Positions 1 to 52,931 are shown, counted from the first letter of the whole stretch. The stretch: 63,539 nt of DNA, filler included, from Reclinomonas americana ATCC 50394 (GCA_048213135.1; 9 parts of 6 records of this genome joined end to end with filler, not necessarily neighbours in it), one strand, 5' to 3'. A program made the numbers and translations. Notes: generated by a model not told the origin, from the sequence alone.

Positions 1-514
1 CCATAATCGCCTCCACGCCACCAAACTGGCCCGACTCCCACGTCATGAGACTGTCGGCCGTCTGTGCAAATAGTGTGAGTGTTTGCGTCACTTTTGTGTG
101 ACATGGCGCGAAAACGCACACGCTCAACGACAACAGACAACTCGAAGTGAAGTGTGTCAGTGTGTCAGAGTGCATATGTGTGTGTGAGAGAGACAGACAG
201 AGAGAGTGCGTGTATGTACAGAGTCAAGCAACAACGTGACGCAACATAGAGGCCCGCCAGACCCTCCAAGTTCGTGTCAAACGTTCCATAGTAGAACTGC
301 AGTGGATGCGACACATGCACATATAGTCAGTCACTCACGCACGACTTGCGGTGTGCGTGGAAGAGAGAGAGAGAGCGAGAGAGACTGCGCGACATGACAT
401 GTCGCGCGCCATCATCCGCAAATAGCTCTTCACACACGCACGTTCACACACGCAAGCACACACGCGTGCTCTCACCTCGACAAACTGTTGCCCGATCGTT
501 TGGAAATCTGCCAT
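1..514 (-). CDS. NTF2: Nuclear transport factor 2, 3' end truncated by window edge
   Basis: Three GT-AG exons splice to MADFQTIGQQFVE|FYYGTFDTNLEGLAGLY|TADSLMTWESGQFGGVEAIM, the typical NTF2 N-terminus. Confidence 0.93.
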
Positions 515-1171
515 CTCGTAACCAGAAGAGTGTGTGATGTGTGTGATGGACAGATTGGCTCCTGTAGACATCCAATCTGTCCAGCGCTCAGTTTCTTGGT
601 TGTGTGCGAGAGAGTATTGACCAGCCGTTGTTGTTATTGTTGTGTGGGTGTTTACCTTTCATCGTTGCCGTTGTCAATCACCCCCCCTTTGCTTCATCGC
701 CACTGCCTGCCAGCAGATCACTTGCATTAGAAAGGTGCGTTTACAGTGTGAGCGTTTCTTCCCGCCGCGGCTCTCTCTCTTTCCTTGTCGGGTCTCCTCT
801 GCACTGCTCTCTTGTGGTGTATGTGCGTGTATTGCTGCTGCTTGCCAGTGTGCGCGCGCGTGTGTGTGTGTGTGTGAGAGAGAGAGGGCACGAGGCAGTG
901 AGCGCGCGGTGTCTGAACAAGACGCGGCCATCTCCACCCTCGCGTCCGTTCTTCAACTCCTCTCTTGCTCGGACTCTTTACTTGTCAGCACAGCAGCTCT
1001 TTTCCTTGTTCTCTCTCAAGACTGCTCTGCCACGCTGCCCTGCCTTGCTCAGTTTCACACCTTCTATATGCGTGACTTATGATTCACTGCTTTGTGAGAG
1101 GAGTTATGCCGCGAGGAAACTGACTCTCTCTCATTGTCGCATACAGTCATCTCTCTTTTCCTCACATCATC

Positions 1172-2440
1172 ATGAACGGACCCGGAACGACGATGGCGCA
1201 CTGGCGACCGGGCCACTTTGCCTACGCTGCCTCGACACCGGTGTGTGTGTGTGTGTGGCTGCGTGCGTTTTTGTGTGCGATTCGGTTGTTCGCATTGACT
1301 CACTTCCCTTTGCGGCAGATGGGCCGTGATGTGATCAACTCAAACCGACGCAAGCACCGCGAGCTGCTGCGTAACATGCGCAGCTGCATCGACACCTCAC
1401 CGCCTCGCACCATGGTCAACCTGCCGCCGGGACTGCAAAAGTGTTGCGTCCCCACCCACCCTTTCACAACGCCAATGCTCTCTCGCTCACTCTTTCTTCT
1501 CATGTCTCCCCGTGCAGCACCGACGAGACCCGAACTCAACTCCACCGCAGACCTCGGCGGCGATCGGTCGCGCAGCCCCTCTCGCAGCAGCAGCCGACCA
1601 AGGTCAGCCTCGGCCGGCCGGACACGGCCACTCTCTGCCATCTCGCGCGGTTCATTTGGTGGATCACGCGACACGGGAAGGACATTTGCCAGCACTCCCT
1701 ACGGTGCCGCGTTGGGAGAGTCGTCGTCGCCACAGTTGCGCCTCCTTGCACAACTGACACGAAAAAAAGAGAAACGACACTCATCGCTTGTGTGTCAGTT
1801 TCGATGCCTTTGACACCCCGACACCACCCTCCGGCCCCAAGCACGGCCGCATGTACTCGTCACCCTCGGCACTATCGCCCACCTTTGGTGGCGCCAAGCC
1901 GGCCACACCGGGAAGCCGACGAGCCAACATGGCCGGTCTGCGAGGGCGACCGGGAATGAGCACTGTGTCGGTGTCCATCGACACGGGCGACGGCGACGAG
2001 GAGCAGCTCAGCGTTGGTGCGTGTAGGCCTGCACAATCGTCTTGTACACTCAACTGACCCGCCCTCCCTCCACACAGGCCCTCTCACACCACAAGCGCTG
2101 TCCGAGGCCTACGGCAAGCCGCCTTCACACACTCCGCAAACCGGCCTGCAGGGCAAGAAACTGTTGCGTCTCCTTCTCCTCCGGATCCCATGAACATGCG
2201 ATGGCACTTCATGCTCACATATAAACCAGGTCCGCCAGTGCGAGTCGGCCAAGTTCAGCCGCCGGCAGCTCCGCCATGGCGTCGCCATTGTCGGCGGCCG
2301 CCATGCAATTCGACAAGGAGGAGGACCGAGATCTCTTCGAGAACTTTGTGCGCCTGCTGGCAAGACTGGACCTGCCGCGCGCCTCCGCCATGTGCAAGCT
2401 GGCATTGGTGCACTCGCAGCAGAACCAGGCCGCGGAATAG
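1172..2440 (+). CDS. Hypothetical Ser/Pro/Arg-rich protein, 6 exons, possibly ciliary
   Basis: In-phase exon chain (donors 1241, 1443, 1735, ~2017, 2163) ending at TAG 2438-2440. HRELLRNMRSCIDTSPP resembles the N-terminal motif of CFAP97D/SPATA7-type proteins (weak). Start is ATG 1172 or 1193. Confidence 0.6.
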
Positions 2441-3567: not shown

Positions 3568-6252
3568 ATGTCATCGGGAGTGCGCAAACGCGGCAGTGGT
3601 GCCTCCAATGGTGCCTCGCGACCCAATGGAGCAGCCGCTGATCATCATCACAATGGGGATTCGTCAGTGAGCAATGGAGACAGCAGTGCAGCTTCTGCAG
3701 CTGCAGAGCACAACAACAATGGAAGCATCACGGCTCCGGCATCACTGCTGGAGGACGCAGATGCAGCATGCTTGTCTCTGGCGACTCCGTCACAGGCGCG
3801 AGCGCGTGTCCAGTTGAAAGAGGTGCTGGTCTTCGCTCGTTTGCCTGTGACTCCCGGAGTCTGATGGTTTGCTAGGTGGTTGCCTCGTGGCGCAACTCGT
3901 TCATCACCAAGCTGGAGGATGTGCGATCGAGAGCGCATGCGGAGCTGGATAGGGAGGTGCAGCAGCTGTCGCATGACTTGGATTCGGTGATGATGGAGGC
4001 GATCCAGTCGGTGAGCAAGGCGCCGGCGCAGCCGCCGCGACCGCGTCGCAAGGTGTATGTGGCGTGCGAGAGCACGCTGACCAAGATGATGCGCGAGGAC
4101 TCGTACCAAGTTGCGTGGCGAGTGGGGAAAGAGTACATGTGTCTCTTCCTCTGTGATCGTTCGTACTCACTGCACAACTCCCGACATGCGCCAGACCATT
4201 TTCAATATTGCGCTGTCGGCACTGATTGCCATCTCGCTCAACCTCATCCTCACCGACTACCAGCGCACTGGCACACTCACCGACTTTTCGCTGCTGTTGT
4301 GGGGCTTTGCGGGCGCCGACAGATTCGTGTGGCGCTGGATGGCGCTGATGTTCATGTCGCTGCTTGTGCTGTTCTACGGTCATCTCGCCGTGACCGGCAG
4401 TCGACTGGCCTATCGCTTCTGGGTCGCAGTGTACGCTGCCCAGCAGGTGGGTGTCGTGGGGGTGGTGTTAGGAGAGAGAGAGATAAGAGGCAAAAGGGAG
4501 TTGGGATGGAGGAAGGTAGATTAGGTGTGTTAAGAGTAGTGGTGCTAGTTGTCTTCTTTCAGCCTTCTATCTGCAATTCGTTGCGGCACGAGCGCGATCG
4601 ATGACGCTCATGTTTATTCACTCTTTCCATTTGTCACTCGCGCAGTTTGTGATGTTTGGTCTGTCGGCGTACTGGACAACGTCGTTCAACCCACCATTGC
4701 GTGCGGCATTGCTGGCCGAGCAAGCGCGTATTTCCATGAAGGTACGTCGTGCCCAGGGCCGCTGAAGTACCGTCTCTCTTCTCTTTCCTGCACTCCACCC
4801 TCACGCTCGCTTCTCTTCTTCGCGCTTTGTCTTCTTTCTCCTCCTGGTTGCTTCCTCATTTCGTCCCCATTCCATCCTCTCCTTCCTCGTCCTCCTCTTC
4901 CCTCCCCCTTTCCTCCCTCATTCCTCGTCCTTTACTTCCCTCCTTCCTCGTCTTTCTCTTCCATCCCTTTCCTCTCACGCTCTCGTTCTCCTTATTTGTC
5001 TCCTCTGTCTTCCTCTCATGCAACACCACCGCGCTTTGCTTTCTTCTTCCTCCTGATCGTTCTGTCTTTTTGTCCCCTTCTCCCCCCCCCCCGCCTCTCT
5101 CTCCCCCATTTTTGTCTCTCTCACTTCTCTTCCTCCTCCCCTTCGCCTCCGCATTCGCTATCGCACACGCATCCCCTTCCTTGTGATTGTCTCTTCATTT
5201 GCTGTCCTTGTCTCCATGCTGCTACTTTCTGTCTCTCTCTCTCCCCTTCCACTACCTTCGTTGTCCCCTTCTTTATCTTTCTCTGTCTCTCCCCTTTTTT
5301 TCTCTGCCTCCCTTCCCCTTTCCCCCTTTCCTCACCCTTTCCTCACCCTTTCCTCCATTCCTGCGCAGATGCACGCCTACTTCCGCGAGAAACTCCTGTG
5401 GAAGACCATGGGCAACGCCACCGAACCCGTCTCCCCCATCACTCCCGAATACGTGGACTCGGAGTTCCGCTCCTTCCTCTTCTTCCTGTTCGCACCGACG
5501 CTGGTGTACCGCCGTCACTACCCGCGCACAACCTGCATCCACTGGGGTGCTGTGGTCACGCGTCTGCTGGAGGGCATTGGTGCGTGGGTCGTCTCCTTGC
5601 CCCTCATCTCTTTATTTCGGTGCTGACACGCGAACGACGGCAGGTGTGGTGTACTACACATACCTCGTGTTCCGCTGGGTGCTGCCGCAGTTCGACCGGC
5701 TCAGTGTTTTCAGCGATTATACGTCGTTCTTTGCGGCATGGGTCGGTGCGATGGGACCTGGCATGGCGCTCATGTTCCTCGGTCACTACTTGATCCTGCA
5801 CACGTGGCAGGTGCGTTATGGTTGTGGGTGAAGATTGTGTGTTCTCGTGTCTCACCGTTCATGCAGAACATGTTTGCGGAGTTGACTCGCTTCGCCGATC
5901 GCCGCTTCTACGAGGACTGGTGGAACGCGCGCACGTGGGAGGTTTGTTACTCTCTCTCTCTTTCTCGCTCGTGTCTCCCCCCTCTCTCTGTCTCCTTTCC
6001 CTATCTCTTCCTCCGTCTCTCTCTCTTTACCTCTCTTTCTCTCTGTCTTCCCTCTATTTCCCCTTTTCTCTCTTTCCCTCCGTCTCTCTGTCTCTCTCTT
6101 TACCACTTCCCTCCCTCCTCCTTTTCCCTCCCTCCCTCCCTCTCTCTTTCCCTCTCTCCCTCCCTCTCTCTTTACCACTTCCCTCTCCCCCTCCCTCTCC
6201 CTCTCCTTTTCCCATCGCTCGCACGATGCAGGTGTTCTACCGCAAGTGGAAT
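3568..6252 (+). CDS. SOAT1: Sterol O-acyltransferase (ACAT/SOAT, MBOAT family), 3' end lost in gap
   Basis: Motifs MKMHAYFRE, FLFAPTLVYRRHYPRT, NMFAELTRFADRRFYEDWWN and FYRKWN, plus several TM segments. DGAT1 is not fully excluded. Confidence 0.88.
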
Positions 6253-6869: not shown

Positions 6870-9800
6870 ATGCGACAAGTGCGAATGCGCCCGCACGGTC
6901 TCCTCTCTGTGCCTCTCCCTGCCTCCCTCTCTCACATCCTCGCCTGGTGTCGCCACCACTGCTGTCGCCACTCCAACAACGACAGCGAGCACGCACTCAA
7001 TGAGCTCTCCAGTGTCGAAGAAGAAGATCTCCTCGAATCCCCTCAGCAAAAGCACCAACACCACCAACAGCGCCAACAACAGTGCCTGGTCATTGCAGCA
7101 GTCGCCACTGTTGCAGTGGTGTTGATTGTGTGGGCGTTGGTGTGGCGATGGCGAGCAACGCAGCGATACGAGTTGATTGAGGTGCGACGCGCGGGAAGCT
7201 CTGTGCGACCCGATCCCGACGTTATTCGCCCGCTCGCCCCCGATGCTGTGTTGGATTATCGCGAGGAGGCTGGTCAGTCTGTCTGTGTGTTGAAGTCTCT
7301 TTGGTGGAGGCAGTGACAGCTCATCTTATGTGCGTGCAAGATCTGATGTTGAATGAGAACGGTCTGACGGTGCTGGTGGGAGGCGATGTGCTGAAGCATC
7401 GTGCGTTGCTTCCGGAAGGCGCCTCAGTCGTGCGGTTACCGCAGTATGATTTGGTTTAGTCGTCGCTTGCCTGTATGCACTCGAGTTGTCCACCTTACGT
7501 GTCATGCGTCAGACGACGCCGGTGATTGTCGAGGAGCCGGTGAGGATACCGGGCAATCGCGATGTGTTGGGGCCGCCGGTGCTGCCGGTGCCTGGCGCGC
7601 CGGGCTTTGTCATGCACAAGTCTGGGCGATGGCAGTCGTGGTATGCCGTGATTCCGGGCGCGGTGCGTGCTGTGCCTGTGTTGTTATGCTGGTCGATGCT
7701 GAATGGTGCCCGTGCGCAGCTGGTCGACAATGGTGGAGTGGTGTACGACTCCAAGTTTGCGTATGTGGCCGAGCAGTGTCATCGCGATGGCAAGGCATCG
7801 TCGACGCAGTATCCGCAGGGGGCGGTGCGGCCGGCGATGGACGTGGTGGTGTTGCGCATGACGTGGGGCGACGGCTTCTTCCACTTTGTCATGGAGGAGA
7901 CCATGCGCCTGCTGCAGGTGTGGGACCTGGTGCAGAGCATGCCGAAGCTGAAGGTGGCCATCTCGGCCAGCATGTACGGCGAGAAGGATGTGGAGCTGAT
8001 GGAGTTGCTCGGCATCTCGCAGCATCGAGTTTCGTCTCACAGAACCACTCTTGCACATACACACACACACACTCGCGCCCTCACGCTCACGTGCTTTGTG
8101 GCAGCTCATTCGGCTCGACAAGAGCTTTGCCGGCCTGAATGCCGATCGCGTGTACTTCCCCGCCGGCACGTATTGCGGCCAGCCGCCCGTGACGTTGATT
8201 CGCAAATTCCGCCAGATCATCTGGAGCCTGCACGGTAGTGCGCTGAACTCGCACTGGAACTCTTTCTGGCCTGGTTCGTGGCGAGTGAGCGATGGTGTAG
8301 GTGTCTTTACAGTAGTTCACACTCTCTTGTTCGTTGGTGCAGAGGCCAGAGCACGCGCCGAGCGGACGAACGGTGGCGCCGTATCGCGTGAGATTCGTCA
8401 CGTGATCATCGTGCAACGCAAGGGCCGTTCCCGTGAGCTGCTCAGCGAGAATCAGGTGAGTGCGCTGGTCTGTGAGAGACTTGTTCGGCAGCTGACCGAC
8501 TGTGTTTTCGCAGATCGAGGCCTACATTCAGAACAACTTCCCGCACTGGGTTGTCGACAAGTTCGACGGGAAGTTGTCGTTTTACGACTCCATGTTGCTC
8601 TTCTCCACCGCCGATCTGGTCATTGCGCCTGAGGGTGCAGGTGCGTGACACGCTCACAGTCGAAAGCGACGGAGTATTTTGTTGACTGCGCGCGCACAGG
8701 CTCCGTTCACAATCTGTTTGTTCGCGAGGGGAGCTCGTACTTTGAGATCCACCCCGGCTACCAAACCNNNNNNNNNNNNNNNNNNNNNNNNNNNNNNNNN
8801 NNNNNNNNNNNNNNNNNNNNNNNNNNNNNNNNNNNNNNNNNNNNNNNNNNNNNNNNNNNNNNNNNNNNNNNNNNNNNNNNNNNNNNNNNNNNNNNNNNNN
8901 NNNNNNNNNNNNNNNNNNNNNNNNNNNNNNNNNNNNNNNNNNNNNNNNNNNNNNNNNNNNNNNNNNNNNNNNNNNNNNNNNNNNNNNNNNNNNNNNNNNN
9001 NNNNNNNNNNNNNNNNNNNNNNNNNNNNNNNNNNNNNNNNNNNNNNNNNNNNNNNNNNNNNNNNNNNNNNNNNNNNNNNNNNNNNNNNNNNNNNNNNNNN
9101 NNNNNNNNNNNNNNNNNNNNNNNNNNNNNNNNNNNNNNNNNNNNNNNNNNNNNNNNNNNNNNNNNNNNNNNNNNNNNNNNNNNNNNNNNNNNNNNNNNNN
9201 NNNNNNNNNNNNNNNNNNNNNNNNNNNNNNNNNNNNNNNNNNNNNNNNNNNNNNNNNNNNNNNNNNNNNNNNNNNNNNNNNNNNNNNNNNNNNNNNNNNN
9301 NNNNNNNNNNNNNNNNNNNNNNNNNNNNNNNNNNNNNNNNNNNNNNNNNNNNNNNNNNNNNNNNNNNNNNNNNNNNNNNNNNNNNNNNNNNNNNNNNNNN
9401 NNNNNCCCTTCTCCCTCCTCCTTCCCCCTTCCCCTTCTCCTTCCCCTCCTCATCCATCTCCTTTCCCTCCTCATCCATCTCCTTTGCCCTCCACAGACCC
9501 CCCTCGTTCGCACCACCGACGAGTGCACTGCACTGGAACGCGACTTTGTGCAGGCTCCGCGACTCGACCCTCGCTTCTTCTTCACGCACCACCACGCCAA
9601 CAGCACGTTCATTGATGTCAGTGCGCGACGACTGGCCGAGGAGTTTGTGGCCGCGGGCACTCGTGTTGTCATGTTTACGGTGGTGCGCGTGCACAGTGTC
9701 GGCTACGCCAAGTGGCTCTTCAACTGGGTGTACCACTTGCGACGGAACACGCGTTTTCAGCGACCACTGGTGGTGTGTACCGATGAGCGGACGCGCGTGA

Positions 9801-10301: not shown

Positions 10302-10341
<40 letters not shown>

Positions 10342-11149: not shown

Positions 11150-14100
11150 TTAAGTGCGCACACGCGGCTCAATCTTGAGCGACGCCGCAAATTGCTGATT
11201 ATCGTCCAGCACCGTCATCTGCGACGACGACAAGTGATGCAGCAGGTATTGCACCGGTCGAATGGGGTACGGCTGCTGCTGATACGTGCCAATCTCCATA
11301 ATGACCTTGGCAATGCGACGGCACTTGGCAAAGTTCACCATGGCCGTTCCGCGCCACGTATTTGGTGCACCGTCGTCGAGGAACACTAGATCCGTAAAGT
11401 ACAGACCAATGTAGGGGATGCAGGGCGGATCCACCTGCTGCAGATGCTGGCGCAGTCGGTACATGCCGTTGCGCGGCGACATGAGTTCGTCCAGCTCCTC
11501 ATGCAGCTGCACCACGCGCTTCGACATCAGCTCCTTGGTTCGCTTCAGACGATGTACAGCAGCTGAGGACAGGCCGCCCAGAATCTCGTGCACGCCGTTG
11601 AGGTTGTTCAGCGGAGTGCGGCAAAGCTGCGGGCGATATGGAAAGAGATAAGGGACATGGAGACAAAGGTGGAGAGGCACACAAGAACGATGACAACGCA
11701 CACAAACACAACATCATTTCATGTACACCCTTTTCTCACGCTCTTGCTCACATACACACAAGCTTCTCCACACTCTATCTTTCTCTCGCACACGGGCAAA
11801 CACACGGTTCTTCTTCTATGCAATCCTCTCGCTCCACGGAACACCAACTCACACGCATCCTCAAACACACACAAAAACTTCGCTCCATATCTCTTCTCCA
11901 CTTTCTCCACTTTCGCTATCGTTTCTCTCGCCCGCACACAAACACAGCACTTCACTTTGACATCCATTATCTCTCTTCCACACACAACAATTCCCTTCCC
12001 TTCAGCACACATTTCTTTTCCAATTTCAACCATGTCTTACCCTCTTCCCCATCACACCACGAACTCAGCTTTCCCTCTATCTCTACTTCAAACGCATAGT
12101 TATTCCCTCTCGCTATCATTACTCTCTCCACACACAGCTCTTCTCTGTCCATTCCCACCCTCCCCCTTTACCCCCTTCCCTTCCATTCCCCTCCCTCACC
12201 TGCGCAATCTCAATCCACTTGGACATGATCTTCTTACGACGAGCAACGTCGGGCTCGGTGACAATCGACGTCGCCACATAGCGCGACACCACGTTGAAGC
12301 GGTCAATCATGCGCATAATGTTGGGTGCCGAGTCGTACTTGTGCGACTTGGTCCAGCACTGATTCATCAACTCACGCGGCTGAATTCTTCTAAAGAGCGA
12401 ATACTCGACGAGCGTGAGCTGCCGTGCAATCTCCAATGACGGCCACTGGGACGAGACGAAACAATCAGCGCCCACCACCACAACAATACACAACAACAGA
12501 GCCATGGAACAGGAGGCGCAACTTGCAGCAGATTAAACGTCTGGTTCTGCGTGATGCGACTGCGCGGCAGCATTGGCTCCGGCGTCACCAGCTGAAGCGC
12601 CTGCTGCCAGTCCATGTCGCCACTCATGCCGCTGCCCACCAGCTGCTTGATAATCGACTTTTGCAGCTGCGCCGCGCCATTGCCGCGCAAGTGCGTGCTC
12701 ATGAACATGTCACAGAAGCGCGCGAGCCTCGCCACCAGCGTGCTGTCGAAATCGTAAAAGTGCTTGTCGACCCACGTGCGCAAGTTGTTAAACACACTGT
12801 GGCGGATGACAGGGTGATGAGTTCTTCGTCCTTCCTGCTCACGCAATGAGAATCACATCTCGCGCACGCACCGCAAACGGATTTGAGTCGTGATGCCGTC
12901 ATCGTTGCCGGACATTGCATCGGCGGCGATAAAGCGGAACAAGAGACCACGAAGCAGTTCGGCAGGCGGCGTGAACGAGCGGTACGTGAGGAAATAAACG
13001 GTGCGGTAGTTGGGATCTGCGATCCGGAAAAGAAGCCAGTCAGCAAAAATGCCTCCCTCACTCTGCTCTCTGCTTCATACTCTGCCGTCTCGACAACGTA
13101 CCCTGATTGCTCGGGCTGGTGATCATGTCAATCAGCTTCTCCACCGTGCCGGCACGGATGGAGGCGTTGGGCGAACGCGCCGCGCGCGCGACCGCAGCAG
13201 CAGGGGCGCCCGTGGGTGATCGTGGACCCGACTGCATTTTTCTCACAGGCGTGAGCATCGTAAACACGAGAGAGGGAACTCTATCTGTACGCACCTCTGC
13301 GGATGAGCTCAGCCCGTCGGCCGAGTCCGGAGTGGCATTCGGTGTCAGCGCAGATGAGTCGCTGCTCGACGCTGTGTCCACCGCTGCGCCAGCAGCCGGA
13401 GCAGCACCCTCATCGTCGCCCTCAAACAACAAGTTCTGGTCCGACTCGGGCTCGGCACTTCGAATCACTTCGCGTGCCGTCTCCACCTCCTCGTCGTACG
13501 ACTCGATGAGCACGGGTCCAGAAGCGGTACTGCAACACTTGTCGTGTGAGAAACACAACACCATCGCGACTGTGCAGATGATTCAAAACAACCGCAACTC
13601 CACCGCCGACTTGGTCACGCACTCCCAGATAAAGTCCTGCAGACAGCGCACATTGAAGCCGTCCAGTGCCGACACACTGCGCTCTGCTTGTGGCAGAATG
13701 ACGGTGCACAGCTCGGCGAACTTGGCCATCCACAAGTCGCTCGCTACCAGCGGCAAGCCCTCACCCGTCTGCAGGACACTGGAGTGTGAGTTCATGGACG
13801 GGTGAACGAATGGAGAGAAGCAAGGGGGGAACAGACCCGAATGAGAGCATGCAACACCACAGACAACTCTTGCGGCGACTCTTGCAGCGTCGGCAGCTTG
13901 CACTGGGAGAACACGGCACTGAACAGCAGCTTCCAGCTCCGTTGACCGCACTCGCGGGCCGCAGTGGCTGTTGCATTCGCACGATCATTGAGAACTCGCG
14001 CATGGGAGTCAAGGGGACGATGATGACGAAAGAGACGAAACGAGATGGACCAGCCGGAACAATGTACGGCGCGAAATGCAACAAGAAACACGGCACCGTC

Positions 14101-17100
14101 TGCGTAACAGCCCGCATCACAACGGTGCTGAGAATGTCCAACGGTGGTTGCGAGGACTCCATAGACCCGCTGCGAGAAAGGAGGGCGGAGGTCAGTCACG
14201 TGTCTCGCAGATGACATTTTGCCTTGCGTTCTCTCCCTCTCCCTCTCCCTCTCCCTCCCTCCCTCCCTCCCTCCCTCTTTCTNNNNNNNNNNNNNNNNNN
14301 NNNNNNNNNNNNNNNNNNNNNNNNNNNNNNNNNNNNNNNNNNNNNNNNNNNNNNNNNNNNNNNNNNNNNNNNNNNNNNNNNNNNNNNNNNNNNNNNNNNN
14401 NNNNNNNNNNNNNNNNNNNNNNNNNNNNNNNNNNNNNNNNNNNNNNNNNNNNNNNNNNNNNNNNNNNNNNNNNNNNNNNNNNNNNNNNNNNNNNNNNNNN
14501 NNNNNNNNNNNNNNNNNNNNNNNNNNNNNNNNNNNNNNNNNNNNNNNNNNNNNNNNNNNNNNNNNNNNNNNNNNNNNNNNNNNNNNNNNNNNNNNNNNNN
14601 NNNNNNNNNNNNNNNNNNNNNNNNNNNNNNNNNNNNNNNNNNNNNNNNNNNNNNNNNNNNNNNNNNNNNNNNNNNNNNNNNNNNNNNNNNNNNNNNNNNN
14701 NNNNNNNNNNNNNNNNNNNNNNNNNNNNNNNNNNNNNNNNNNNNNNNNNNNNNNNNNNNNNNNNNNNNNNNNNNNNNNNNNNNNNNNNNNNNNNNNNNNN
14801 NNNNNNNNNNNNNNNNNNNNNNNNNNNNNNNNNNNNNNNNNNNNNNNNNNNNNNNNNNNNNNNNNNNATCCCTCTCTCCATCCCTCTCGCTCACCTTCCG
14901 CCCGCGCTTACTCGTAGCCGATTCGTCACATTGCGCGAGGCACGTGAAGACTCGACAGGCGTGTAGAGCGCCTGATGCAACATGGCCGCAGCCTCCTCCG
15001 CCATTGCACGAATCGGGCCTGTGGCACTCGATGGCGCATCCACCGCGGCATTGGATGTCTTGGACACGAAATCGGCGACGCGAGCCGGGGCCGTCTGTTC
15101 CAGCAAGTGAGACACACAGACTTGAAGAATAACAAGTGTGATCATCAGGGCATGCGTGTAGACGCAACCGTAGCGGAATCCTCTTCGTCCGACGGCTGCA
15201 GCATCATGGCCGACACGCCCAGCGGCTTGCTGGCAGTTGTCACAATGCACACGCGCGCCAAATCCAGTGCCAGCAGACCAACAACGTCGCTAAACACCTC
15301 GTGTCTTGCAGTGTCCGGCGCCACACCACCGCGTTCGTACACGTCCTTCAGGGACACCACCTATTGCACAGAAAGGTCAGCGATGCAGAGTGAGCACACA
15401 ACAGAACGCCGAAAATGTACCTCGTCGACTTCCGCAGTGTTGGAACTGACAAAGAGCCGAATGGTGTGGTTCAGCAGGCGCAGCAGGCGACATACAAACG
15501 CGTATGGTCGACGACTCAGCCAGTCACTGCGATGCAGGCAGTCAGTCAATACATGGTTGAAAGGCGGTGTGCCAGCACGAAGAAAAACGCAACATAACAA
15601 ATTCCCGGTTCAAGCTGCGCAGCAGGTACACCGCACACAGCAGCAACTCCCGCTGGTCCTCCTCCGTGTAGAACTCGATCAGCAGGACCGAATCGATAAT
15701 CTATAGAAAGCGTGAGGTGATGGCAATGAAAAAAGACGCCAGCACCAGGCAATCAAACGCAACAGTGGACAACAGAGGCAAGTACATGGCCGCGAGACGA
15801 TGTCTTCCATCCGGCGTCTGATACTTCGAATCGAGGTCGTGCTGGCGGAAGAGTTGGCGCACAGCGGCGATTCCCTGTGGAAGGAATGAGTGCTGGGGGA
15901 ATAGAAGGAACGAGGAAGTAAACAACGAGATGCACACCAGCCGCCTCGTCTGCAACGTCGGCTCCTCCAACACCTGCACAAACACGGCGGAGAGCCACTG
16001 CGGCAGAGTCGGCAGAATCGGCTGCGGGTGCGTCGACTGCAGCGGCGCCGTCACCTGGATGCCGGACAAGTCCAGCAGGTACGGCACATCGAGCAGCACA
16101 CGCAGGAACTCCATGCGCATTGTCAGTGCGCACGCAGGCGGCGTCATCAGGGTAGCTGAGGGCAGAGGGCGCTCAGCATGTGGCGGAGGGCAGGTAGCAT
16201 TATCGAGAAGAAAAATACTCAACTCGTCACCGGGCCAATCACCGAGTTGGAGCGACCACGCGAGGCCGACGACATTGACTCGCCAGCGGCACCAGCGCTC
16301 GATGCATCGTCGACCGCGCGCTTGTCCCTGACACCGCGGCCCCACTGGAAGCCAGTGTTTTCCATAAAGGATGTCACCTGTGAAAAAGAGAGTCAGCGAG
16401 CGAAGGGGAAAGGGCTGGATTTCGAGTTGGCGGACGCACCAAATGCATGACAAACGACAGATCGACGAGGCCAATGAGATCGCGCACAAAGAGCGCCACA
16501 GCGCGCACCATCTCTGTGGCGGTGAACACGGACTTGGCGTCGTACGACTGGTTCTTCATCAAGTGGAACGCCTGGTGCGTGACACCCTCCAGGATCAACG
16601 ACACCATGTCCATCATGTCGGCCTCCAAGTCGTGTTCGTCGTCGTTCATCAATGCATCCTACGCGCACATAAACATCATCGGTTACGGATGCCTGGGTTG
16701 GAAACACCGCCGCTGCTACACATGACGCACATCATCCAGACGCAAGTCGCCAGATCCGTGACGGCTGCGGGGCGCACTTCCCGGCTGCGACTCGTTCCGC
16801 TTGAGGAACAAAATCAGGCTCTTGATGAGGATGTCCATGAAGAACCAGGTGAAGCGATTCAGGTCACCGAGAGCCTCGGTAACCAGCCGCTCCGACTCAC
16901 GGCGATCCTCTCCACGAATAATAATGGGCAATCGCGGCGTGTCGCACTGCGGAGAGCAAGAAAGAAACGCTTCAACACACAAAGAAAATAAAAGTGCGGC
17001 GATACGCACGGAAAATCACGAACCTCGGCCTCGAGCCGACGACCCACAGCCAGCATCTCAGCCTGCTGCTCCAAATCGGACGCCGTCGGCAGTGAGCGTG

Positions 17101-24246: not shown

Positions 24247-24346
24247 NNNNNNNNNNNNNNNNNNNNNNNNNNNNNNNNNNNNNNNNNNNNTTAATTAATT
24301 AANNNNNNNNNNNNNNNNNNNNNNNNNNNNNNNNNNNNNNNNNNNN
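24247..24346. other. Artificial scaffold linker
   Basis: N44-TTAATTAATTAA-N44 with stops in all six frames. The same linker occurs at 32353, 39510, 45167, 53205, 57986, 60518 and 62301. Confidence 0.97.
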
Positions 24347-35692: not shown

Positions 35693-38600
35693 ATGAGCGG
35701 AGGAGGTGCCGGTCGCACGTCTGTGCGTTATCCCAACACGGAGATGCCGTTTGTGTGGTGGCGCGGGCACTGCCACACGCGATATGTGTCGATGAATGAT
35801 CCGTTTTATCATTCGTCGTCGGCGCTCATTCTGAAGATCCCTGGTGAGCATAGAGGAGAGAGGGTGGAGGAGACAGAGGGAGAGGGGGACAGAGGGATGT
35901 TGAGGGAGAGAGATTGGGAGAGAGTGTGGATTTGTGGTGATGAGAGTGGACGGTCGTCGTTAATTTGCTCATCGATGCCGCGCTCGTTTCCGCTCTCTCT
36001 GCGAGAGTGTGTGATCTTCTTCTCGTGCTATGCATGTACTCAGTCGATGGGCGCGTTCGCGTTATCCAGTCCTCGATCGTATGCATTTTGCTTTCTTCTG
36101 TCACTCTTTCTCTCTCTGTCTCGCTCGCTTTCTCTCTCTCTGTCTGCCTTCTCTTCTTGCATCGAGGAGTCCTCGCACTCAAGCGAAGGGCGTCCTTTTT
36201 GCGCGCTGTTTGGTAACCCATGTGTGGCTTGCACATCCTCTCTCTTTGTTTCTCCAGGCGCTCACGTAATCGAGCGATGGGCGCCTGTTGCACGTCGTCT
36301 CAGTCAAACTTTGTCATCGATACGTGACTTGTTTCCCTTCACTCTTTCTCCATATCTCTCTCTCTCTCTCTGTGCTCGTCCTCCTTCCTTGCCAATCATT
36401 TGGGCGAATGGCGCTTCTCTTTGCTCACGCCTTGTCATTGATGTGTGACTTGCTCATCTGCCCCTCTCTCTCTTCACTCGCTTGCACTGTCTCCACCTCC
36501 TTGTCGGTCTTCAACGATTGTCGATGTCTTGCTTCCTCTTCATCTACTCTCTCTCTCTCCTTTCTTCGCCTTCTCCCCTTTCCCTCTCCCACACTCACTC
36601 TTCGGCCACAGATCCCTACGGGCAATACCAAACACGCCTGGTATACGAGGGCGGCGTGCGAGTGTGGGAATCCGGTGCGCGTCACGTGTGGGACACGTCG
36701 ACGGGTCGCCCGTCCACGGCAGGCACGAGTGGCGGTGCGTCGGCTGCACTGATTGATGACTCAGAGCGCGAGGGAACGTGGTTGGACTCGCTACGTGATA
36801 CGGAAGGTGTGGTTGTGGGGAAAAGACTAGGGAGGGCAGAGAATGAAGAAGGAGAGCGAGAGAGAGAGAGCAACAGCGAGCGGTACAGAGAGAGCAACAG
36901 CGAGCGGTACAGAGAGAGCAACAGCGAGCGGTACAGAGAGAGCAACAGCGAGCGGTACNNNNNNNNNNNNNNNNNNNNNNNNNNNNNNNNNNNNNNNNNN
37001 NNNNNNNNNNNNNNNNNNNNNNNNNNNNNNNNNNNNNNNNNNNNNNNNNNNNNNNNNNNNNNNNNNNNNNNNNNNNNNNNNNNNNNNNNNNNNNNNNNNN
37101 NNNNNNNNNNNNNNNNNNNNNNNNNNNNNNNNNNNNNNNNNNNNNNNNNNNNNNNNNNNNNNNNNNNNNNNNNNNNNNNNNNNNNNNNNNNNNNNNNNNN
37201 NNNNNNNNNNNNNNNNNNNNNNNNNNNNNNNNNNNNNNNNNNNNNNNNNNNNNNNNNNNNNNNNNNNNNNNNNNNNNNNNNNNNNNNNNNNNNNNNNNNN
37301 NNNNNNNNNNNNNNNNNNNNNNNNNNNNNNNNNNNNNNNNNNNNAGCGTACAGAGAGAGCAACAGCGAGCGTCAGAGAGAGCAACAGCGAGCGTCAGAGA
37401 GAGCAACAGCGAGCGTCAGAGTGAGCAACAGCGAGCGTCAGAGTGAGCAGCAGCGAGCGTCAGAGTGAGCAACAGCGAGCGTCAGAGTGAGCAACAGCGA
37501 GCGTCAGAGTGAGCAACAGCGAGCGTCAGAATGAGCAACAGCAAGCGTCAGAATGAGCAACAGCAAGCGTCAGAATGAGCAACAGCAAGCGTCAGAGAGC
37601 AACAGCGAACGTCAGGGAGAGCAGCAGCGAGCGTCAGAGAGAGCAACAGAGAGCATCAGGGAGAGCAACAGAGAGCATCAGGGAGAGCAGCAGCGAGCGT
37701 CAGAGAGAGCAGCAGCGAGCGTCAGAGAGAGCAGCAGCGAGCGTCAGGGAGAGCAGCAGCGAGCGTCAGGGAGAGCAGCAGCGAGCGTCAGGGAGAGCAG
37801 CAGCGAGCGTCACAGAGAGCAACAGCGAGCGTCAGAGAGCGCAACAGCGAAGCGTTTGAGCGCTGAATCGCTCACCCTTTCGCTTCTCGTCGCAGTTTTC
37901 CTGACGGACGGCGGTCCCGAGGGTCAAGAGAACCAGCGCCGTTACTTTTTGTGCACAATCAAGGTGCCGCACGGACAGGGCGTGCTGAAGCGCGCCGACG
38001 GAACCACCATCTACGAGGGCACATGGCGCGACGGGTACGTCTCTCCCTCTCTCGCATCTCACTCACTTTGTCCTCTTTCGCTGACCTCCGCATCATCCAC
38101 GCAGAAATCGCCACGGCACTGGCGACGGTGAGTACGAGACAGGACGGTACTATGGCGAGTGGGAAAATGGGTGGATGGAGGGCGAGGGCACATACACCAA
38201 CTCCGACGGTGACACGTTCCGCGGTGCGTGGAAAAAGGACATCATCTGGGAGGCCGAAGTTGCGTGCACACTCCCCTCCTTCCCGAGTCGCGCACATTGC
38301 TCATGCATTTCGAGCAGGGGTCCATGCTCCTCAAGAACGGTGAGGTGTGGGCCGGCACGTGGCATCACGGTCTCTTCAAGGGTCAAGTGGTGCAGCCGAA
38401 CGGCGACAAGTACGAAGGCGAGATCAGTATGGGTCGCTGGGTGTTTGGCGATCGGCCACCGGCACCCTCGGCACCCACCTCCGGCCCGTCGTCGCTAGCC
38501 GGTGCAGGCGGTGAGCATACTTCATGAGTCTCGCCATTTTATCGAGAAGAGAGAGTCTTACTCTGCCGTAGGTGTCACGGGCGTTGGTGGCGTGGCCACA

Positions 38601-39509: not shown

Positions 39510-39609
39510 NNNNNNNNNNNNNNNNNNNNNNNNNNNNNNNNNNNNNNNNNNNNTTAATTAATTAANNNNNNNNNNNNNNNNNNNNNNNNNNNNNNNNNNN
39601 NNNNNNNNN

Positions 39610-39976
39610 CACAAAAACTGCCTGGTTGGAGCACCACCACCACCACCACCACCGGCGCCGGCGTCCGGCTGCGAGCCACCATCGTCGTCGTCCGAGTCGA
39701 CTTCGTCAAACTTGCTGCGTGCGGACTCGAGACGCGATTGCAGTCTCCGGTGTTGCACCTGCTGCAGATTCTTCATCTCCTCGTCCAGCTTCTCGATGCA
39801 CTCCTCGGCCACACGGCGTCGGTATGCTTCCTTTTCACGCCGCCTCTTTTCGCCTGCGCACATGGAATGAGGGAGAGACAAGAGAGAAAAGTGGGGGAAG
39901 ATGAATGGGCGACGCAACGGGCCAACTCGGTCGACAGGCGCTCGCGCTCCATCTCCCACTTCATCTTCGATTGGTG
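39610..39976 (-). CDS. Coiled-coil protein fragment
   Basis: KMKWEMERERLSTELAR|EKRRREKEAYRRRVAEECIEKLDEEMKNLQ..; both ends lie in gaps. Confidence 0.55.
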
Positions 39977-40806: not shown

Positions 40807-41862
40807 ATGGCACCACGCGTTCTTCTCCCACTCCTCGCGGCTCTCGCTCTCTCCGCCGCCCTCTGCGCACTGGCCTCACCAATCATCCCGCGCCAGTACC
40901 CCATCTACAAGCAATGCGTTGCGCAATCACTCTCTCTGCACTCTTCTCTCACACGCTCACTCACACACACTCACACTCACTCAACAGGATCCCTCGTGGG
41001 GCAACAACAAGATGGGTGGCGACTCCACCATCTGCCAAGGCACCTGCGCGCGCGACTGTCATGACTCTCTCACTCAAACTCAATCACTCACTCTTTGCCT
41101 CCCTCACACACAGAGGGTTGCGCCATGTCTGCGCTCTCCATGGGACTGCAAGGATGGAACTACACTCTGCCGGACTCTCCCTCGCTCGCTGTCAATCCAG
41201 GTTCTTTTTCTCCTTAAACTCATACGCTCTCAATGTCGATGACTGGGAATCATTGCATCTTGCTCTCTTGCAGGAACGCTGAACACGTGGTTGATCAACA
41301 ACAAGGGATACAAGGTGTGCTTCCCCTCTCCCCACCGCCTCCTCTTCTCTCATCACTGTCGTGTGCTCACTCGGAATCGCAGTGCATCGGAAGTACGTCA
41401 CAGCCTGCTTTACCCGTTCGTTACTTGCATGTCTCTCACACTGCACGCACAGACGACTGCAACAACCTGGTGCTGGACTCGCCCGAGCGCATCAACCCGC
41501 ACATCAAGTTCCTCGGTGAGAACCAGAAGCCGACGGACCCAGCGGAGGTGCTGCACGGTTTGCTGACGGGCAAGGTGTACCTGGCGCACGTGCGCAACAA
41601 TCACCACTTCGTGCTCGTCATTGGTGAGGCAGTCGTGGTCCTCGCGTTTTCTTGAAGCTCGATCCTGACTGCATGCATGGGGGCAGGCGTCGACTCGACC
41701 AATTACAAGACCGTGTACATCAACGATCCGAACTACGCGCAGCCGACGTACGACTACTCGGAGATTACCGACATGATCGTTGCGCTTTCTCACTTTCCCC
41801 CTCTCTCCTTCCCTTTCACTCACTCTTCTCCGTCTCCACAGGTGTACCAGATGAACGCTTGA
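40807..41862 (+). CDS. Secreted peptidase C39-like protein
   Basis: Signal peptide, then YKQC|DPSWG, EGCAMSALSMGL (catalytic Cys), NPGTLNTWL, HFVLVIG (His) and VYINDP (Asp). Eight exons. Confidence 0.8.
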
Positions 41863-44444: not shown

Positions 44445-44587
44445 CTGNNNNNNNNNNNNNNNNNNNNNNNNNNNNNNNNNNNNNNNNNNNNNNNNNNNNN
44501 NNNNNNNNNNNNNNNNNNNNNNNNNNNNNNNNNNNNNNNNNNNNNNNNNNNNNNNNNNNNNNNNNNNNNNNNNNNNNNNNNNNNNNN

Positions 44588-45108: not shown

Positions 45109-45266
45109 GTGAGTGAGATAGGCGTCAGGACCGCCTTCACCATTTTGGCTGATTGTGTGCGTTCGGNNNNNNNNNNNNNNNNNNNNNNNNNNNNNNNNNN
45201 NNNNNNNNNNTTAATTAATTAANNNNNNNNNNNNNNNNNNNNNNNNNNNNNNNNNNNNNNNNNNNN

Positions 45267-48224: not shown

Positions 48225-48307
<83 letters not shown>

Positions 48308-49578: not shown

Positions 49579-52500
49579 TTATCGGCCATTCGACGCCGTT
49601 TTTTCGTCCTCCAACCTCTGTAACCGGGCCGCCATGTCGCGGATCACCACCAACAAGCTCGCCGTGTCCACGCCAGCATCGGCCGGCTGTGGTGCCGACT
49701 GATCGCTCAGTTGGCACGGTGGTGACGATTGTCGCACGAGATCCTCCAGTTCCTGGATGCGACTCTTCGAGGCGTCGAGCTCCGATTTCAGCGCCTTGAC
49801 GCTCTCAATCAGGAACGGAACGAGCTCCTGGTACGCAATGGCTTGCACCTGGCCGTCCTCCACCATGACCACCTGGCGACGCAAAAAACAGTGAGTGAGA
49901 GACAGCGTGCAAGCATGGGAGTGAGCTTGGCAACGCACCTCCGGAACAATGTTCAGCACGTCCTCGGCAATGAGACCCGTCCACCGCCGCGTGTTTGCCA
50001 CGTCCTACCGAGCACACAAACATGCAGTCGTCAGCCAAGAAACACAAGGGATACACATCCGTGCGCATGCGGTGGGCAGACGCAACAGTGCGGTCGTACT
50101 GCACACCCTGCAAGCTGAGGATGCGATCCAGCGCAATGTTGGTATCAATCGGTGTGATGTTGGTCTTGAAACGGCGAGATGACATGGTGACCTGCGACAT
50201 TTGGCACGGTGTCATTTAGTGTCGTGCAGATTGGAGTGAGGAGCAGCCAAACGGCGACGCACAATGCCTCGAACTTGCAGATTGCCATTGCTGCTCAGCG
50301 ACATGTCCATGCGAGCGACACCGGCTGCGACACGACGATGGTCAGATTGCAATTCAAAGAGGAGAACAGAGAGACGCTGCACGTGCACGCAACTTGCCCA
50401 GTCATACCACTGCAACTGCGTAGCAGTGGTGCCCATGGTCCACGTGGTTGTCGCGGTGCCAGTGTCGAATGTCATCGCATCCGTGGTGCCGTTCGGAGCG
50501 GTAACGGAGAAGGAGCTCAAAGAGCGCACTTTCTGTAAATGATGACGAATTGAGCAGAGGTTGGCGGAGTGTACTTGCAGAGGCATGAACGCAACTCCTG
50601 TGCCTGTGCCCTGCAGCGACAGGTGCGACGGTGACGATTGGATCAGCCTGCATCGATCGAGTGAGTTCACGATGAATGAACACGAGTTGTTCTTCTTGAT
50701 TACATGACACGCAACGTGGAGGTCATGCGCGTGAAGCCACCGGTGCCGTCGGAGATGGTCAGCGTGCCGGTGCTGCCGTTGATAGTCGCCAGAGTGCTCA
50801 CTTGCAGGGTGGCCGCCGAAAGGGTGGTGGTCGCTGACGCCAGTTGGATGGTGGCCGACGCCGACGGCACCGTGCCCGCACTCGCGCCCACACCGAGGGT
50901 GAAGGTGCTCTGGTCCGTCAACAGTGATCTGTGTGATGCTGCTGTTAGCTGGCGCCGAATGAACCCCACACATTCCTTCCAAAACAATGACAGACACGCA
51001 ACGATTTGGTGAGGTCGAAACGGCCGACCGAGTCGGTGAGGAAGACGCCACCACGCGCCGTGTCGGTGACAATGGATGCCGTGCCCGCCGCCATGGTGAA
51101 CACTCCAGCGGGGGCGACTGTCAGCGTGCTGGTGGGTGTGCCCGTCACACTGATTGCAAAGGAGGCGGCTGTGGAGGCGAGCGACGAGTCGGTGAGCGAG
51201 GCCGATGGACTGCCACCGGCCGCCGCCACCGTCACCGTGCCGGTACCGGACCCCGATAGCGTAACACGCTGATTAACGTCCAGCGTGTTCGAGGTGCCGG
51301 TGATGCGCACGCTGCCATTGGCTGGCGACAGAATCAAGCCCGCTCCCTGTGTAGCGCACATGTAAGCGAACTCAACAAGTCAACTCCACAAGCCGTGGTG
51401 GTGACGTACCGAAGCAGCGGGTCCAGTGGTCGACAGAGTCGGTGGCGCCGTGCCCGCCAGTCGCAGCGTGTTCGTCCCGGAAGCTTGCGTGATGACGGCC
51501 ACACCGGTTGCCGGCTGCACGGTAATGTCGCTCGAGGTCGACGCCAGCAGCAGTGTGGTTTCCGCGCGCACAGTGGTGGCACCAATGCTGCGTCGATCAC
51601 AGAGTGAGAAAAACAGGATAAGTGGGGTGTGGCGCAGTGACGCATACTCACCGAAGAATGTTGGAGCCGGGCGATACGAGAATGTCTTCGGTGCCCGTCT
51701 GAATCTGGAAGGTGGTGCCGCCTGCCCAAACACATGACAGTGAGTAGAATGCATGCCGACTGGGGTGATGTGAAAACGAAACTCTGTGGCTCGCCACGCA
51801 GCACGCCCGACACAATGCGCACTGGCTGTGCCAGGGCGGACGACGCCAAGGCCACTGAGCCACTGGCCGACGCCACCGTCAGTGTGGCGCTGCCACGGAA
51901 CGTGGAGCCAGTCAATCTGTGATACAGCGCAATGAGGAAACGAGCATTGGCTTGGAAGGGGGAAAACACAAAAGCACGGACCGCAGCACGCCGGAGAACG
52001 GTTGCAGCTCAATGTCACCGACTTGATTGCGGATGCGGAACTGCGTGGCCGTGTTTTGCGCAAACAACTCGTCGCCGACAAAGAACAGAGTGCCCGTGGA
52101 GCTGGTCAGCGTGAGTGGATTGCCCATGCTGGAGGTCAGCTGTGGGCAGTAGAGAGAGCGTTGGTGAGATGGGGGTGATGTACGTAAACAATGAGAAGGA
52201 CGTGCAAACCGAATCCGTCTGGAAGTTGCTGGCCACCAGATTCGCCACGTTGAGTGTGCCGGCAATCACCACTTCGTTGGACGGTGCAGAGGGTGTGAGT
52301 ACGAGACTGCCGTCGCCCGCGGTGCGAATCGAGCTCGTGCCTGCAATGCGGGAGAGTGAGTGAGAAGGAGACCTTGACAGTGCACGGATTGAGAAGAATC
52401 GCAACTGTTTGCAAATGCCAGCGTGGTGGCCTGCAGTGTGATTTGTCCGCTGCTGCCGGTGGTGAGCGTCAGATTGGCCGACGGGTCTCGCACACTGACC

Positions 52501-52931
52501 TGTGCGTCGCCATCATCAAGTGGTGGTGAGCACAGCAAATCAACAACATCGCAAGATAGAACAGCGACGCAACTTGGTTGGTGATCACGCTCGGCAGATC
52601 CACACCGTCCTCTGCAATCAAACGACCCTCGACCACGAGTCTACGCGATCCAGGCGCAATGTAGAATGTCGAGTTGGTCGACGTTTGCTGCATGCGGAAG
52701 TCGCCACCGCGTGTGTTCACATTCCACGTGTCGGTGACAAAGTCGAGAATGCCACTGTGGAATTCGTCAGCAAGACAGGGAAAAAAACACCCCAGCACGT
52801 GGTTGTGGCAGCACGTAACTTGCCGGGTTTGAGAGTGATGCCACCAGTGTTGGAGATGATAAAATTGTTGGTGTCGGCCGAGATGCTATTGCCGATCTTG
52901 GGCTCCAGCGACAGCGTACCGTTGCCACTCA
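49579..52931 (-). CDS. Fibre-like T/S/G/A-rich beta-repeat protein with C-terminal peptidase S74 / intramolecular chaperone domain and coiled coil; 5' end missing
   Basis: Sixteen in-phase exons. C-terminus NGNLQVRGI|VTMSSRRFKTNITPI..LDRILSLQGVQYDR..GLIAEDVLNIVPE|VV..AIAYQELVPFLIESVKALKSE. Confidence 0.85.

Follow-up and report, generated by a model that had tools for sequence, protein, structure and literature searches.

Two classes of predicted 5' splice sites with a one-base core offset, the second led by GTTGCG, in a stretch of the Reclinomonas americana genome

A +1 shifted register of pairing between the 5' splice site and U1 small nuclear RNA (snRNA) has reportedly been described by Roca and Krainer for rare human sites. 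The window analyzed here, a stretch of 63,539 bases from Reclinomonas americana ATCC 50394 (GCA_048213135.1), contains short predicted GT-AG introns (median length about 65 bases) whose 5' splice sites (donors) fall into two classes with a one-base offset between them, the offset class having lost the preference for G at the last exon base (-1G). The offset class is led by the hexamer GTTGCG, to which an earlier note on this DNA, made by reading and splicing by hand, had drawn attention.

Pairing outside the canonical register is uncommon in humans. The figures of the survey by Tan et al. (2016, PMC4856993), in which the shifted register is listed among the non-canonical schemes, put all such registers together at 2.1% of 201,541 sites and match what the earlier note had said, that shifted or bulged U1 pairing exists in humans but is rare. 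Lineage-specific donors are described in the preprint of Roy and Bowser (bioRxiv 10.1101/2022.06.08.495308), whose account includes GUUUGU donors with a U1 reading ACAAAC in Entamoeba, a GUGCGC donor with a U1 reading ACGUAC in Mastigamoeba, co-evolved U1 5' ends in the Archamoebae, standard together with modified U1 variants in Physarum, and a preference for C at +4 with a standard U1 in Thecamonas and the Mamiellales. Many eukaryotes have two donor classes, AG//GUNNN (U5-favoured) and NN//GURAG (U6-favoured), as set out by Parker, Fica and Simpson (2025, PMC11732430). No description of a GTTGCG or GUUGCGU donor class was found in open-access papers and bioRxiv, also when cross-species surveys of shifted registers were sought, subscription journals being outside the scope of the search; in the open-access literature these strings matched unrelated uses such as primers.

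The offset donors of the window share with the human shifted-register sites of Roca and Krainer a GU after which one extra U precedes the usual +2 to +6 sequence, an apparently poor match to U1 in the canonical register that improves on sliding by one base, as counted against a standard U1 5' end, and freedom from the requirement for an exon-final G. They differ in core, which is GCGU here and AAGU in the human sites, and in frequency, the human sites being rare whereas the shift-like class accounts for 20 to 33% of the predicted donors here and its top hexamer is the commonest of all; moreover, the class here is a prediction from sequence statistics. The shift-like donors may represent a known type of mechanism at a much larger share than in humans.

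Genes were predicted with a purpose-written finder that combined a three-periodic second-order Markov coding score with acceptor, branch-site and length models, was restricted to GT-AG introns of 40 to 260 bases and permitted partial genes at gaps. Training was carried out iteratively on the window itself, starting from seven open reading frames (ORFs) supported by Pfam, and both strands were parsed, the better-scoring model being retained on overlap. A donor-blind parse, in which no donor information except GT was used, gave 163 predicted introns, and two parses with a donor matrix gave 149 and 115. Introns found in both the donor-blind parse and one matrix parse (107) make up the intersection set, and the census covers a single 63-kb window with about 107 to 163 predicted introns. 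An earlier finder based on codon usage alone was dropped because it fragmented genes too much, predicting 302 introns of which 74 were not needed to keep the frame. The reversed window, parsed as a control, yielded 74 pseudo-introns with a total score of 153, against 2484 for the real window, and no donor hexamer occurred more than 3 times. The parses include false introns, yet by this control the GTTGCG enrichment is no artefact.

As a word, GTTGCG is only 1.4-fold more frequent than expected (64 occurrences on both strands against 46 from dinucleotides), so the signal is donor usage and not raw frequency. The donor-blind parse took 26 of the 64 words (41%) as donors, compared with 163 of 6918 GT sites overall (2.4%), giving an odds ratio of 33.5 (Fisher p 2e-26). 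GTTGCG was the commonest donor hexamer in that parse (26/163), with GTGCGT second (16/163), and it accounted for 32/149 and 27/115 donors in the matrix parses. When checked directly, each of the 28 positions named in that note was found to hold the hexamer given for it (GTTGCG, GTTGAG, GTTTCG or GTTACG). Eight are on the + strand (1443, 1735, 2163, 4110, 8029, 38259, 40918 and 41779) and the other 20 on the - strand, the coordinate being in each case the first base of the intron. The donor-blind parse used 22 of the 28 as donors, and 27 were used in at least one of the three parses. The hexamer at 13598 is present and was chosen as a donor in no parse, and that at 245 is present and served as a donor only in a weak gene model (Table 1). 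At the former site two candidate donors stand in tandem and in frame on the - strand, GTTGCG at 13598 from the earlier note and GTTGTT at 13592, six bases downstream, from the parses. Nine GTTGCG donors were found in addition to those already listed, at 4580, 15168, 20817, 21228, 21753, 33636, 39918, 60185 and 63254.

At +3, the donors of the intersection set comprised 52 with T, 39 with G, 11 with C and 5 with A. Donors with G or A at +3 (R class, n=44) had -1G in 30, +3G in 39, +4C in 22, +5G in 34 and +6T in 29; donors with T at +3 (+3T class, n=52) had +4G in 31, +5C in 35, +6G in 36 and +7T in 32. In these position tables the two motifs are identical with an offset of exactly one base. 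The R-class matrix, applied to positions +4 to +8 of the +3T class, scored -41.2 nats in register and +20.0 nats when slid by one, and the proposal that +3T donors are the common donors moved by one base holds for most of them. Of the 107 donors, 18 have a core G(C/A)GT that starts at +3, 20 have it at +4 and only 1 has it at +5, the corresponding frequencies at random GT sites being 2.5%, 1.4% and 1.7%; the single case at +5 indicates two registers and no continuum. With the core at +4, the base at +3 was T in 20/22 donors (donor-blind parse) and 20/20 (intersection set), compared with a T spacer in only 16/68 non-donor GTNG(C/A)GT sites. Among GTTGCG donors, U followed at +7 in 24/32.

The scarcity of A at +3 in the 107-intron set (5/107) and the predominance of C at +4 in the ordinary class (22/44) make the main donor, G/GTGCGT, itself atypical for a standard U1 (here and below, a single slash marks the exon-intron boundary). 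It resembles the +4C donors of Thecamonas, the Mamiellales and Mastigamoeba in the account of Roy and Bowser.

For analysis of the exon-final base, +3T donors of the intersection set were sorted by intronic positions only, the exon-final base being left out of the sorting. This separated 35 shift-like donors (GTTGCG 26, GTTTCG 4, GTTGAG 2, GTTACG 1 and others 2) from 17 canonical-like donors (GTTCGT, GTTTGT and similar). Shift-like donors numbered 34/163, 35/107 or 43/149 depending on the parse (about 20 to 33%) and occurred together with ordinary donors within the same genes. All +3T donors together reached 57/163 in the donor-blind parse and 52/107 in the intersection set, which bears out their earlier description as a major intron class. 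Exon-final G was present in 2/35 shift-like donors, compared with 11/17 canonical-like and 30/44 R-class donors (p 1e-5 and 7e-9). Donors with the same core, G(C/A)GT, had -1G in 11/19 cases when the core stood at +3 and in 1/20 when it stood at +4 (donor-blind parse, p 4e-4); since the cores are equal and -1G depends on their position, a strong intronic match does not explain the loss of -1G. R-class donors with a perfect core had -1G about as often (11/18) as those with other cores (19/26), so the loss is not ordinary exon/intron compensation. The dependence between -1 and +3, for which a check had been suggested, is real and is tied to the core register rather than to T itself.

Two statements of the earlier note on the preceding base fared less evenly. 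That nearly all of these donors lack -1G is correct as a count (1/32 GTTGCG donors has it), and an avoidance of it is unproven, as non-donor GTTGCG words are preceded by G in only 3/32 cases. Within the window G precedes GTT at 14% of non-donor sites, and for predicted exons, read on their sense strand, the figure is 11%; since G is rare there anyway, the data show no selection for -1G and not a proven avoidance (binomial p 0.05 to 0.11 for depletion against background). That many of the donors follow an A is weakly supported, the base at -1 of GTTGCG donors being A in 10, C in 10 and T in 11 of 32; for all shift-like donors it was A in 15/35, against a background of 27% (p 0.03).

Alignment to homologous proteins confirms a subset of the predicted junctions, including several with GTTGCG donors in the gene of a DOCK family member. 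The DOCK model has 26 introns, 9 of them with GTTGCG donors, and matched a homologue of 2,100 residues (P0122) at E 8e-62 in a single alignment that spans ten junctions. Those with GTTGCG at 19634, 20817, 15763 and 21753 are conserved and gap-free in the alignment to the DOCK homologue, and at 19634 the joined sequence LLPYLP/VLLNLL is aligned to LLPHLPVLMNML. Aligned to eight homologues, the model for ribosomal protein SA (RPSA) had no gap at junctions 35218, 35053 (GTTTGT), 34905 and 34537; the two introns predicted first, towards its N terminus, received no support from the homologue alignment. Pfam profiles ran on across further junctions: GAS was colinear over 44058 (GTTGGA, profile positions 82 to 83) and 43891 (116 to 118), WKF continued from 20 to 23 over 33309, and S74 was matched at 1-29 and 37-55 on the two sides of the GTTGCG donor at 50086, the second part being weak alone (E 0.19). 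Most introns outside the homology-checked genes are supported by frame logic alone.

Removal of the predicted introns from the RPSA, GAS, WKF, S74 and DOCK genes left a continuous homologous protein, as is expected of U2-type GT-AG introns. In every donor class the median distance between the branch motif (CTCAC, CTCAT, CTGAC) and the CAG or TAG acceptor was 17 to 25 bases; the GT and AG ends were imposed by the finder. Branch motifs, branch-acceptor distance and acceptors were alike in all donor classes, and intron length and phase differed little. U12-type introns were ruled out by the GTTGCGT donors, the CTCAC-like branch motifs and the lack of any RTATCCTT 5' end among the 107 donors of the intersection set. 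An introner or other recently spread mobile intron family was ruled out by an all-against-all blastn search of 149 predicted introns; of its 78 match rows, the 40 inspected were exact matches of 13-21 bases, mostly in microsatellite repeats.

We favour, with a probability of about one half, the explanation that the same snRNAs read two registers, the second class being recognized by pairing shifted by one base, in a scheme that we infer as follows. In the first register, G/GUGCGU, the core G(C/A)GU would be read from +3, with the exon mostly ending in G. In the second, N/GUUGCGU, the same core would be read from +4 after an inserted U, leaving the exon end free, and the two registers would be used about equally in short GT-AG introns. 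At sites of the second class U1, and later the ACAGA box of U6, would pair one base deeper in the intron, so that intron G+1 would fill the slot of the exon -1G and U+3, opposite U1 A7, the slot of U+2. Cleavage would stay fixed at the GU despite the shifted pairing, and at the catalytic stage the pairing of U6 with the core would have the same one-base offset, or else one nucleotide would loop out. Three features would be accounted for together by a shifted register: the strict U at +3, the displacement of the core by one base, and the lack of a preference for -1G.

The standard U1 5' end is near-universal in eukaryotes, and base pairs were counted against an 11-base version of it, which may differ from the U1 of this organism. 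Shift-class donors formed a mean of 4.26 pairs with this sequence in the canonical register, 6.38 in the shifted register and 6.53 with the base at +3 bulged; in the canonical register random GT sites formed 5.64 pairs and R-class donors 7.52. No U1, U6 or any other snRNA was found in the window with Rfam at the gathering threshold or at E<=1, the latter search returning only two weak chance matches resembling microRNAs.

Several points weigh against the shifted register. The junctions are predictions from gene models with partial homology, and they come from a home-made finder that was trained on the window and placed 74 pseudo-introns in the reversed control. One 63-kb window, with some 107 to 163 predicted introns, supplied the whole sample. 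Pairs were counted with a standard U1 and not with that of this organism, and by these counts a bulge at +3 gives as many pairs (6.53) as the shift (6.38). The picture could also be mirrored, with a U1 that matches GUUGCGU and makes the G/GUGCGU class the shifted one. Finally, a shift predicts that -1 of the +3T class should resemble -2 of the R class (G in 10/44), and G was seen there in 1/26 to 2/35 donors, a low figure to be read against the rarity of G before GTT anywhere in the window.

It is possible, though on balance we think it unlikely, that a variant snRNA is responsible, an idea already raised in the earlier note, namely a U1, perhaps from a second gene beside the standard one, that is complementary to GUUGCGU and pairs with it in the ordinary register. 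The length and sharpness of the motif, with U at +7 in 24/32 and at +3 in 20/22 or 20/20 donors, would suit such a U1, whose seven-base intronic match would need no pairing with the exon and so fits the free -1 position. The rarity of A at +3 (5/107) is likewise odd for a standard U1, and the co-evolved U1s of the Archamoebae and the paired standard and modified variants of Physarum, as related by Roy and Bowser, are precedents. What the window has in common with the Archamoebae is a lineage-wide donor whose +3 base is U, as in Entamoeba, or whose +4 base is C, as in Mastigamoeba; as described in that preprint, however, each of those genomes has a single near-universal donor, whereas here two classes occur in the same genes (9 of 26 DOCK introns have GTTGCG). 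Two lineages that prefer C at +4, Thecamonas and the Mamiellales, retain a standard U1 in the same account, and the exact identity of the cores at a one-base offset is simpler with one snRNA in two registers than with two snRNAs.

Rather improbable, in our estimation, is a bulged register, in which U1 would pair with G+1 and U+2, one U of +2/+3 would loop out, and GCGU would pair as +3 to +6 do ordinarily. Bulged pairing of this kind was validated experimentally in human cells according to Tan et al. (2016, PMC4856993). The +2/+3 bulge register of Roca et al. (2012) and Tan et al. has in common with the donors described here a one-base insertion after GU in which either U can bulge, and two adjacent U's would favour such a degenerate bulge, in keeping with the specificity for T. 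A bulge would account for the U at +3 and for the offset of the core, the pair count with the standard U1 is as good as that of the shift, and some one-base bulge would be required anyway at the U6 or catalytic stage. A bulge would keep the pair between -1G and U1 C9, however, so that -1G should be selected, or should retain its benefit, equally in both classes; no such benefit was seen (1/20 against 11/19), although this argument is indirect. Bulges are also very rare in humans, where the survey's figures give 54 to 68 sites for +2/+3 and 36 to 51 for +3 among 201,541.

We consider it quite improbable that nothing special is involved and that these are degenerate donors in a GC-biased genome, showing the ordinary compensation between AG//GUNNN and NN//GURAG, with GTTGCG merely the commonest locally. 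Both situations have two coexisting classes split by the exon-final G, -1G is in general anti-correlated with a strong match in the intron according to Parker, Fica and Simpson (2025, PMC11732430), and G before GTT is already low in the window (11 to 14%). That system, as presented there, is an exon/intron trade-off in one register, whereas here equal cores stand one base apart. Compensation would not make -1G vary with core position at equal core strength (11/19 against 1/20), nor leave it no rarer in R-class donors with a perfect core (11/18 against 19/26); nor would it confine the core to two offsets with a spacer that is specifically T, and in the ordinary register random GT sites fit the standard U1 better than the shift-class donors.

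That GTTGCG was miscalled and the true junctions lie at nearby GTs or non-GT sites is very improbable: the junctions are model predictions, the finder over-predicts, 13598 is in no parse, 245 is only in a weak model, and 2163, 4110, 50086 and 50715 occur only in parses that used the donor matrix and so depend on it, but the rate at which the donor-blind parse picked GTTGCG was 17 times that for GT sites overall, homology is codon-exact and gap-free over several junctions, the heptamer contains no second in-frame GT, and no such hexamer appeared in the reversed-window control.

More broadly, we advance tentatively the statement that the spliceosome here routinely accepts two core positions, about a third of introns being spliced either by slipped pairing or with a second, dedicated U1.

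Table 1. Predicted introns with offset donors and related sites, and composite gaps, in the window. Intron rows are predicted junctions; the donor column gives the last exon bases, a slash and the start of the intron; "three" denotes the donor-blind parse and both donor-matrix parses.
Feature	Coordinates	Strand	Donor	Parses	Remarks
Candidate intron (weak)	123..245	-	tat/GTTGCGTC	donor-matrix only	gene model score 10.9
Predicted intron	1443..1517	+	agt/GTTGCGTC	three	in frame if read through
Predicted intron	1735..1798	+	aca/GTTGCGCC	three	open frame requires removal
Predicted intron	2163..2253	+	act/GTTGCGTC	both matrix, not donor-blind	
Predicted intron	4110..4194	+	caa/GTTGCGTG	both matrix, not donor-blind	
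Predicted intron, beyond earlier list	4580..4645	+	ttc/GTTGCGGC	donor-blind, one matrix	in frame if read through
Predicted intron	8029..8104	+	cga/GTTTCGTC	three	
Predicted intron, RasGEF gene	12446..12522	-	caa/GTTGCGCC	three	following exon starts Pfam RasGEF profile at position 1
Predicted intron, DOCK gene	15095..15168	-	acg/GTTGCGTC	three	
Predicted intron, DOCK gene	15527..15593	-	tat/GTTGCGTT	three	gap-free vs P0175; 1-residue gap vs P0122
Predicted intron, DOCK gene	15701..15763	-	act/GTTGCGTT	three	conserved, gap-free vs P0122 and P0160
Predicted intron, DOCK gene	16156..16223	-	cga/GTTGAGTA	donor-blind, one matrix	gapped alignment region, no homology support
Predicted intron, DOCK gene	17174..17250	-	aac/GTTGCGTG	three	
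Predicted intron, DOCK gene	19203..19273	-	cgc/GTTGCGTC	three	low-complexity flanks
Predicted intron, DOCK gene	19566..19634	-	ccc/GTTGCGTG	three	gap-free vs three DOCK homologues
Predicted intron, DOCK gene	19941..19998	-	gac/GTTTCGTG	three	gap-free vs P0122
Predicted intron, DOCK gene	20748..20817	-	cct/GTTGCGTC	three	F/LYEE gap-free vs FLFEE of P0122
Predicted intron, DOCK gene	21155..21228	-	cac/GTTGCGTG	three	within P0122 alignment, 2-residue gap 3 residues past junction
Predicted intron, DOCK gene	21688..21753	-	tga/GTTGCGGC	donor-blind, one matrix	gap-free vs P0122
Predicted intron	26109..26170	-	gct/GTTGCGTG	three	
Predicted intron, WKF-domain gene	33384..33443	-	gat/GTTGCGTT	three	in frame if read through
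Predicted intron, WKF-domain gene	33573..33636	-	aga/GTTGCGTC	three	
Predicted intron, MORN-repeat gene	38259..38317	+	gaa/GTTGCGTG	three	
Predicted intron	39854..39918	-	ccc/GTTGCGTC	three	
Predicted intron	40918..40987	+	tgc/GTTGCGCA	donor-blind, one matrix	
Predicted intron	41779..41841	+	atc/GTTGCGCT	three	in frame if read through
Predicted intron within Peptidase_S74 domain	50005..50086	-	act/GTTGCGTC	both matrix	S74 profile on both sides
Predicted intron, S74 gene	50325..50393	-	caa/GTTGCGTG	three	in frame if read through
Predicted intron, S74 gene	50533..50595	-	gga/GTTGCGTT	three	in frame if read through
Predicted intron, S74 gene	50648..50715	-	cac/GTTGCGTG	both matrix	
Predicted intron, S74 gene	50929..51002	-	atc/GTTGCGTG	three	
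Predicted intron, S74 gene	51722..51782	-	aga/GTTTCGTT	three	
Predicted intron, S74 gene	52341..52405	-	aca/GTTGCGAT	three	
Predicted intron, S74 gene	52500..52573	-	caa/GTTGCGTC	three	
Predicted intron, S74 gene	52755..52819	-	caa/GTTACGTG	three	
Predicted intron	53729..53792	-	att/GTTGAGTC	three	
Predicted intron	54682..54742	-	gca/GTTTCGTA	donor-blind, one matrix	
Candidate intron	60185..60263	+	tat/GTTGCGTT	one matrix only	
Predicted intron	63026..63092	-	gca/GTTTCGCT	three	
Predicted intron	63183..63254	-	cct/GTTGCGCT	three	in frame if read through
Gap, 44N-12-44N	24247..24346				
Gap, 44N-12-44N	32353..32452				
Gap, 44N-12-44N	39510..39609				
Gap, 44N-12-44N	45167..45266				
Gap, 44N-12-44N	53205..53304				
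Gap, 44N-12-44N	57986..58085				
Gap, 44N-12-44N	60518..60617				
Gap, 44N-12-44N	62301..62400				

The window contains 34 runs of N totalling 8,656 N, and its GC content ranges from 38 to 59%. Eight gaps are built as 44 N, 12 real bases and 44 N (Table 1), which looks like a scaffolding or masking artefact and not biology. Pfam searches identified RasGEF, a DOCK family member, WD40 proteins, a protein kinase, ribosomal protein SA and GAS8, together with MORN repeats, an ependymin-like protein and a repetitive protein with a terminal Peptidase_S74 domain. Genes read by eye showed many introns of 60-90 bases with CTNAC or CTNAT branch motifs and YAG acceptors. Long microsatellites of the types (CCT)n, (CT)n, (GT)n and (GA)n are located at gene edges (52960-53150 on the - strand, 840-880 and 180-215) and gave rise to spurious GTGTGT donors in the parses.

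Three long, intron-free WD40 ORFs on the - strand (27107-27856, 30413-31279 and 31607-32350) have strong Pfam matches and served as training seeds, yet are absent from all final parses; their coding statistics may differ from those of the other genes. The RasGEF profile, also on the - strand, was matched at 1-78 in exon 12200-12445 and at 83-181 in exon 11153-11626. The break at 11627-12199 implies a single intron some 573 bases long, or else a very small exon in between, and the finder split the gene in two because an intron of that size exceeds the permitted length. GAS8 is on the - strand, with positions 1-168 of the GAS profile spread across three exons at 43669-44445; positions 168-200 were found at 42661-42921 on the + strand, in a short contig between the N gaps 41914-42609 and 43041-43666 that is probably inverted within the scaffold.

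The S74 gene (49627-52953, - strand) has about 15 introns, and its product is repetitive and rich in Thr, Ser, Gly and Ala, and its C-terminal part consists of a Peptidase_S74 (endosialidase chaperone) domain and, after it, a tail resembling a coiled coil. Phage tail spikes and MYRF are the more familiar examples of this architecture. A search with an RPSA exon gave 2605 matches with a best identity of 76% and none from this genome, the named top matches being a mixture of oomycetes, diatoms, an ichthyosporean transcriptome and animals. The DOCK-C2 ORF, used as a query for longer homologous proteins, gave no match. A metagenome scan with P0121, the closest relative of the DOCK exon (45% identity), returned no locus, and a scan with the RPSA exon returned 80 loci, nearly all of them transcript-like contigs of about 1 kb, at <=71% identity.

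If the pattern is genome-wide, this organism would offer a natural experiment on the choice of the 5' cleavage site under snRNA pairing offset by one base. In that case shifted pairing would be a mainstream route here and not a tolerated exception, or else the organism would have a dual-U1 system; a mechanism that is exceptional in animals would be in use at genome scale and could serve as a test system for how cleavage is fixed independently of U1 and U6 pairing. In such genomes, one donor in three would be wrongly scored by gene finders and splice scorers with a single donor matrix, and a two-register donor model would improve their annotation.

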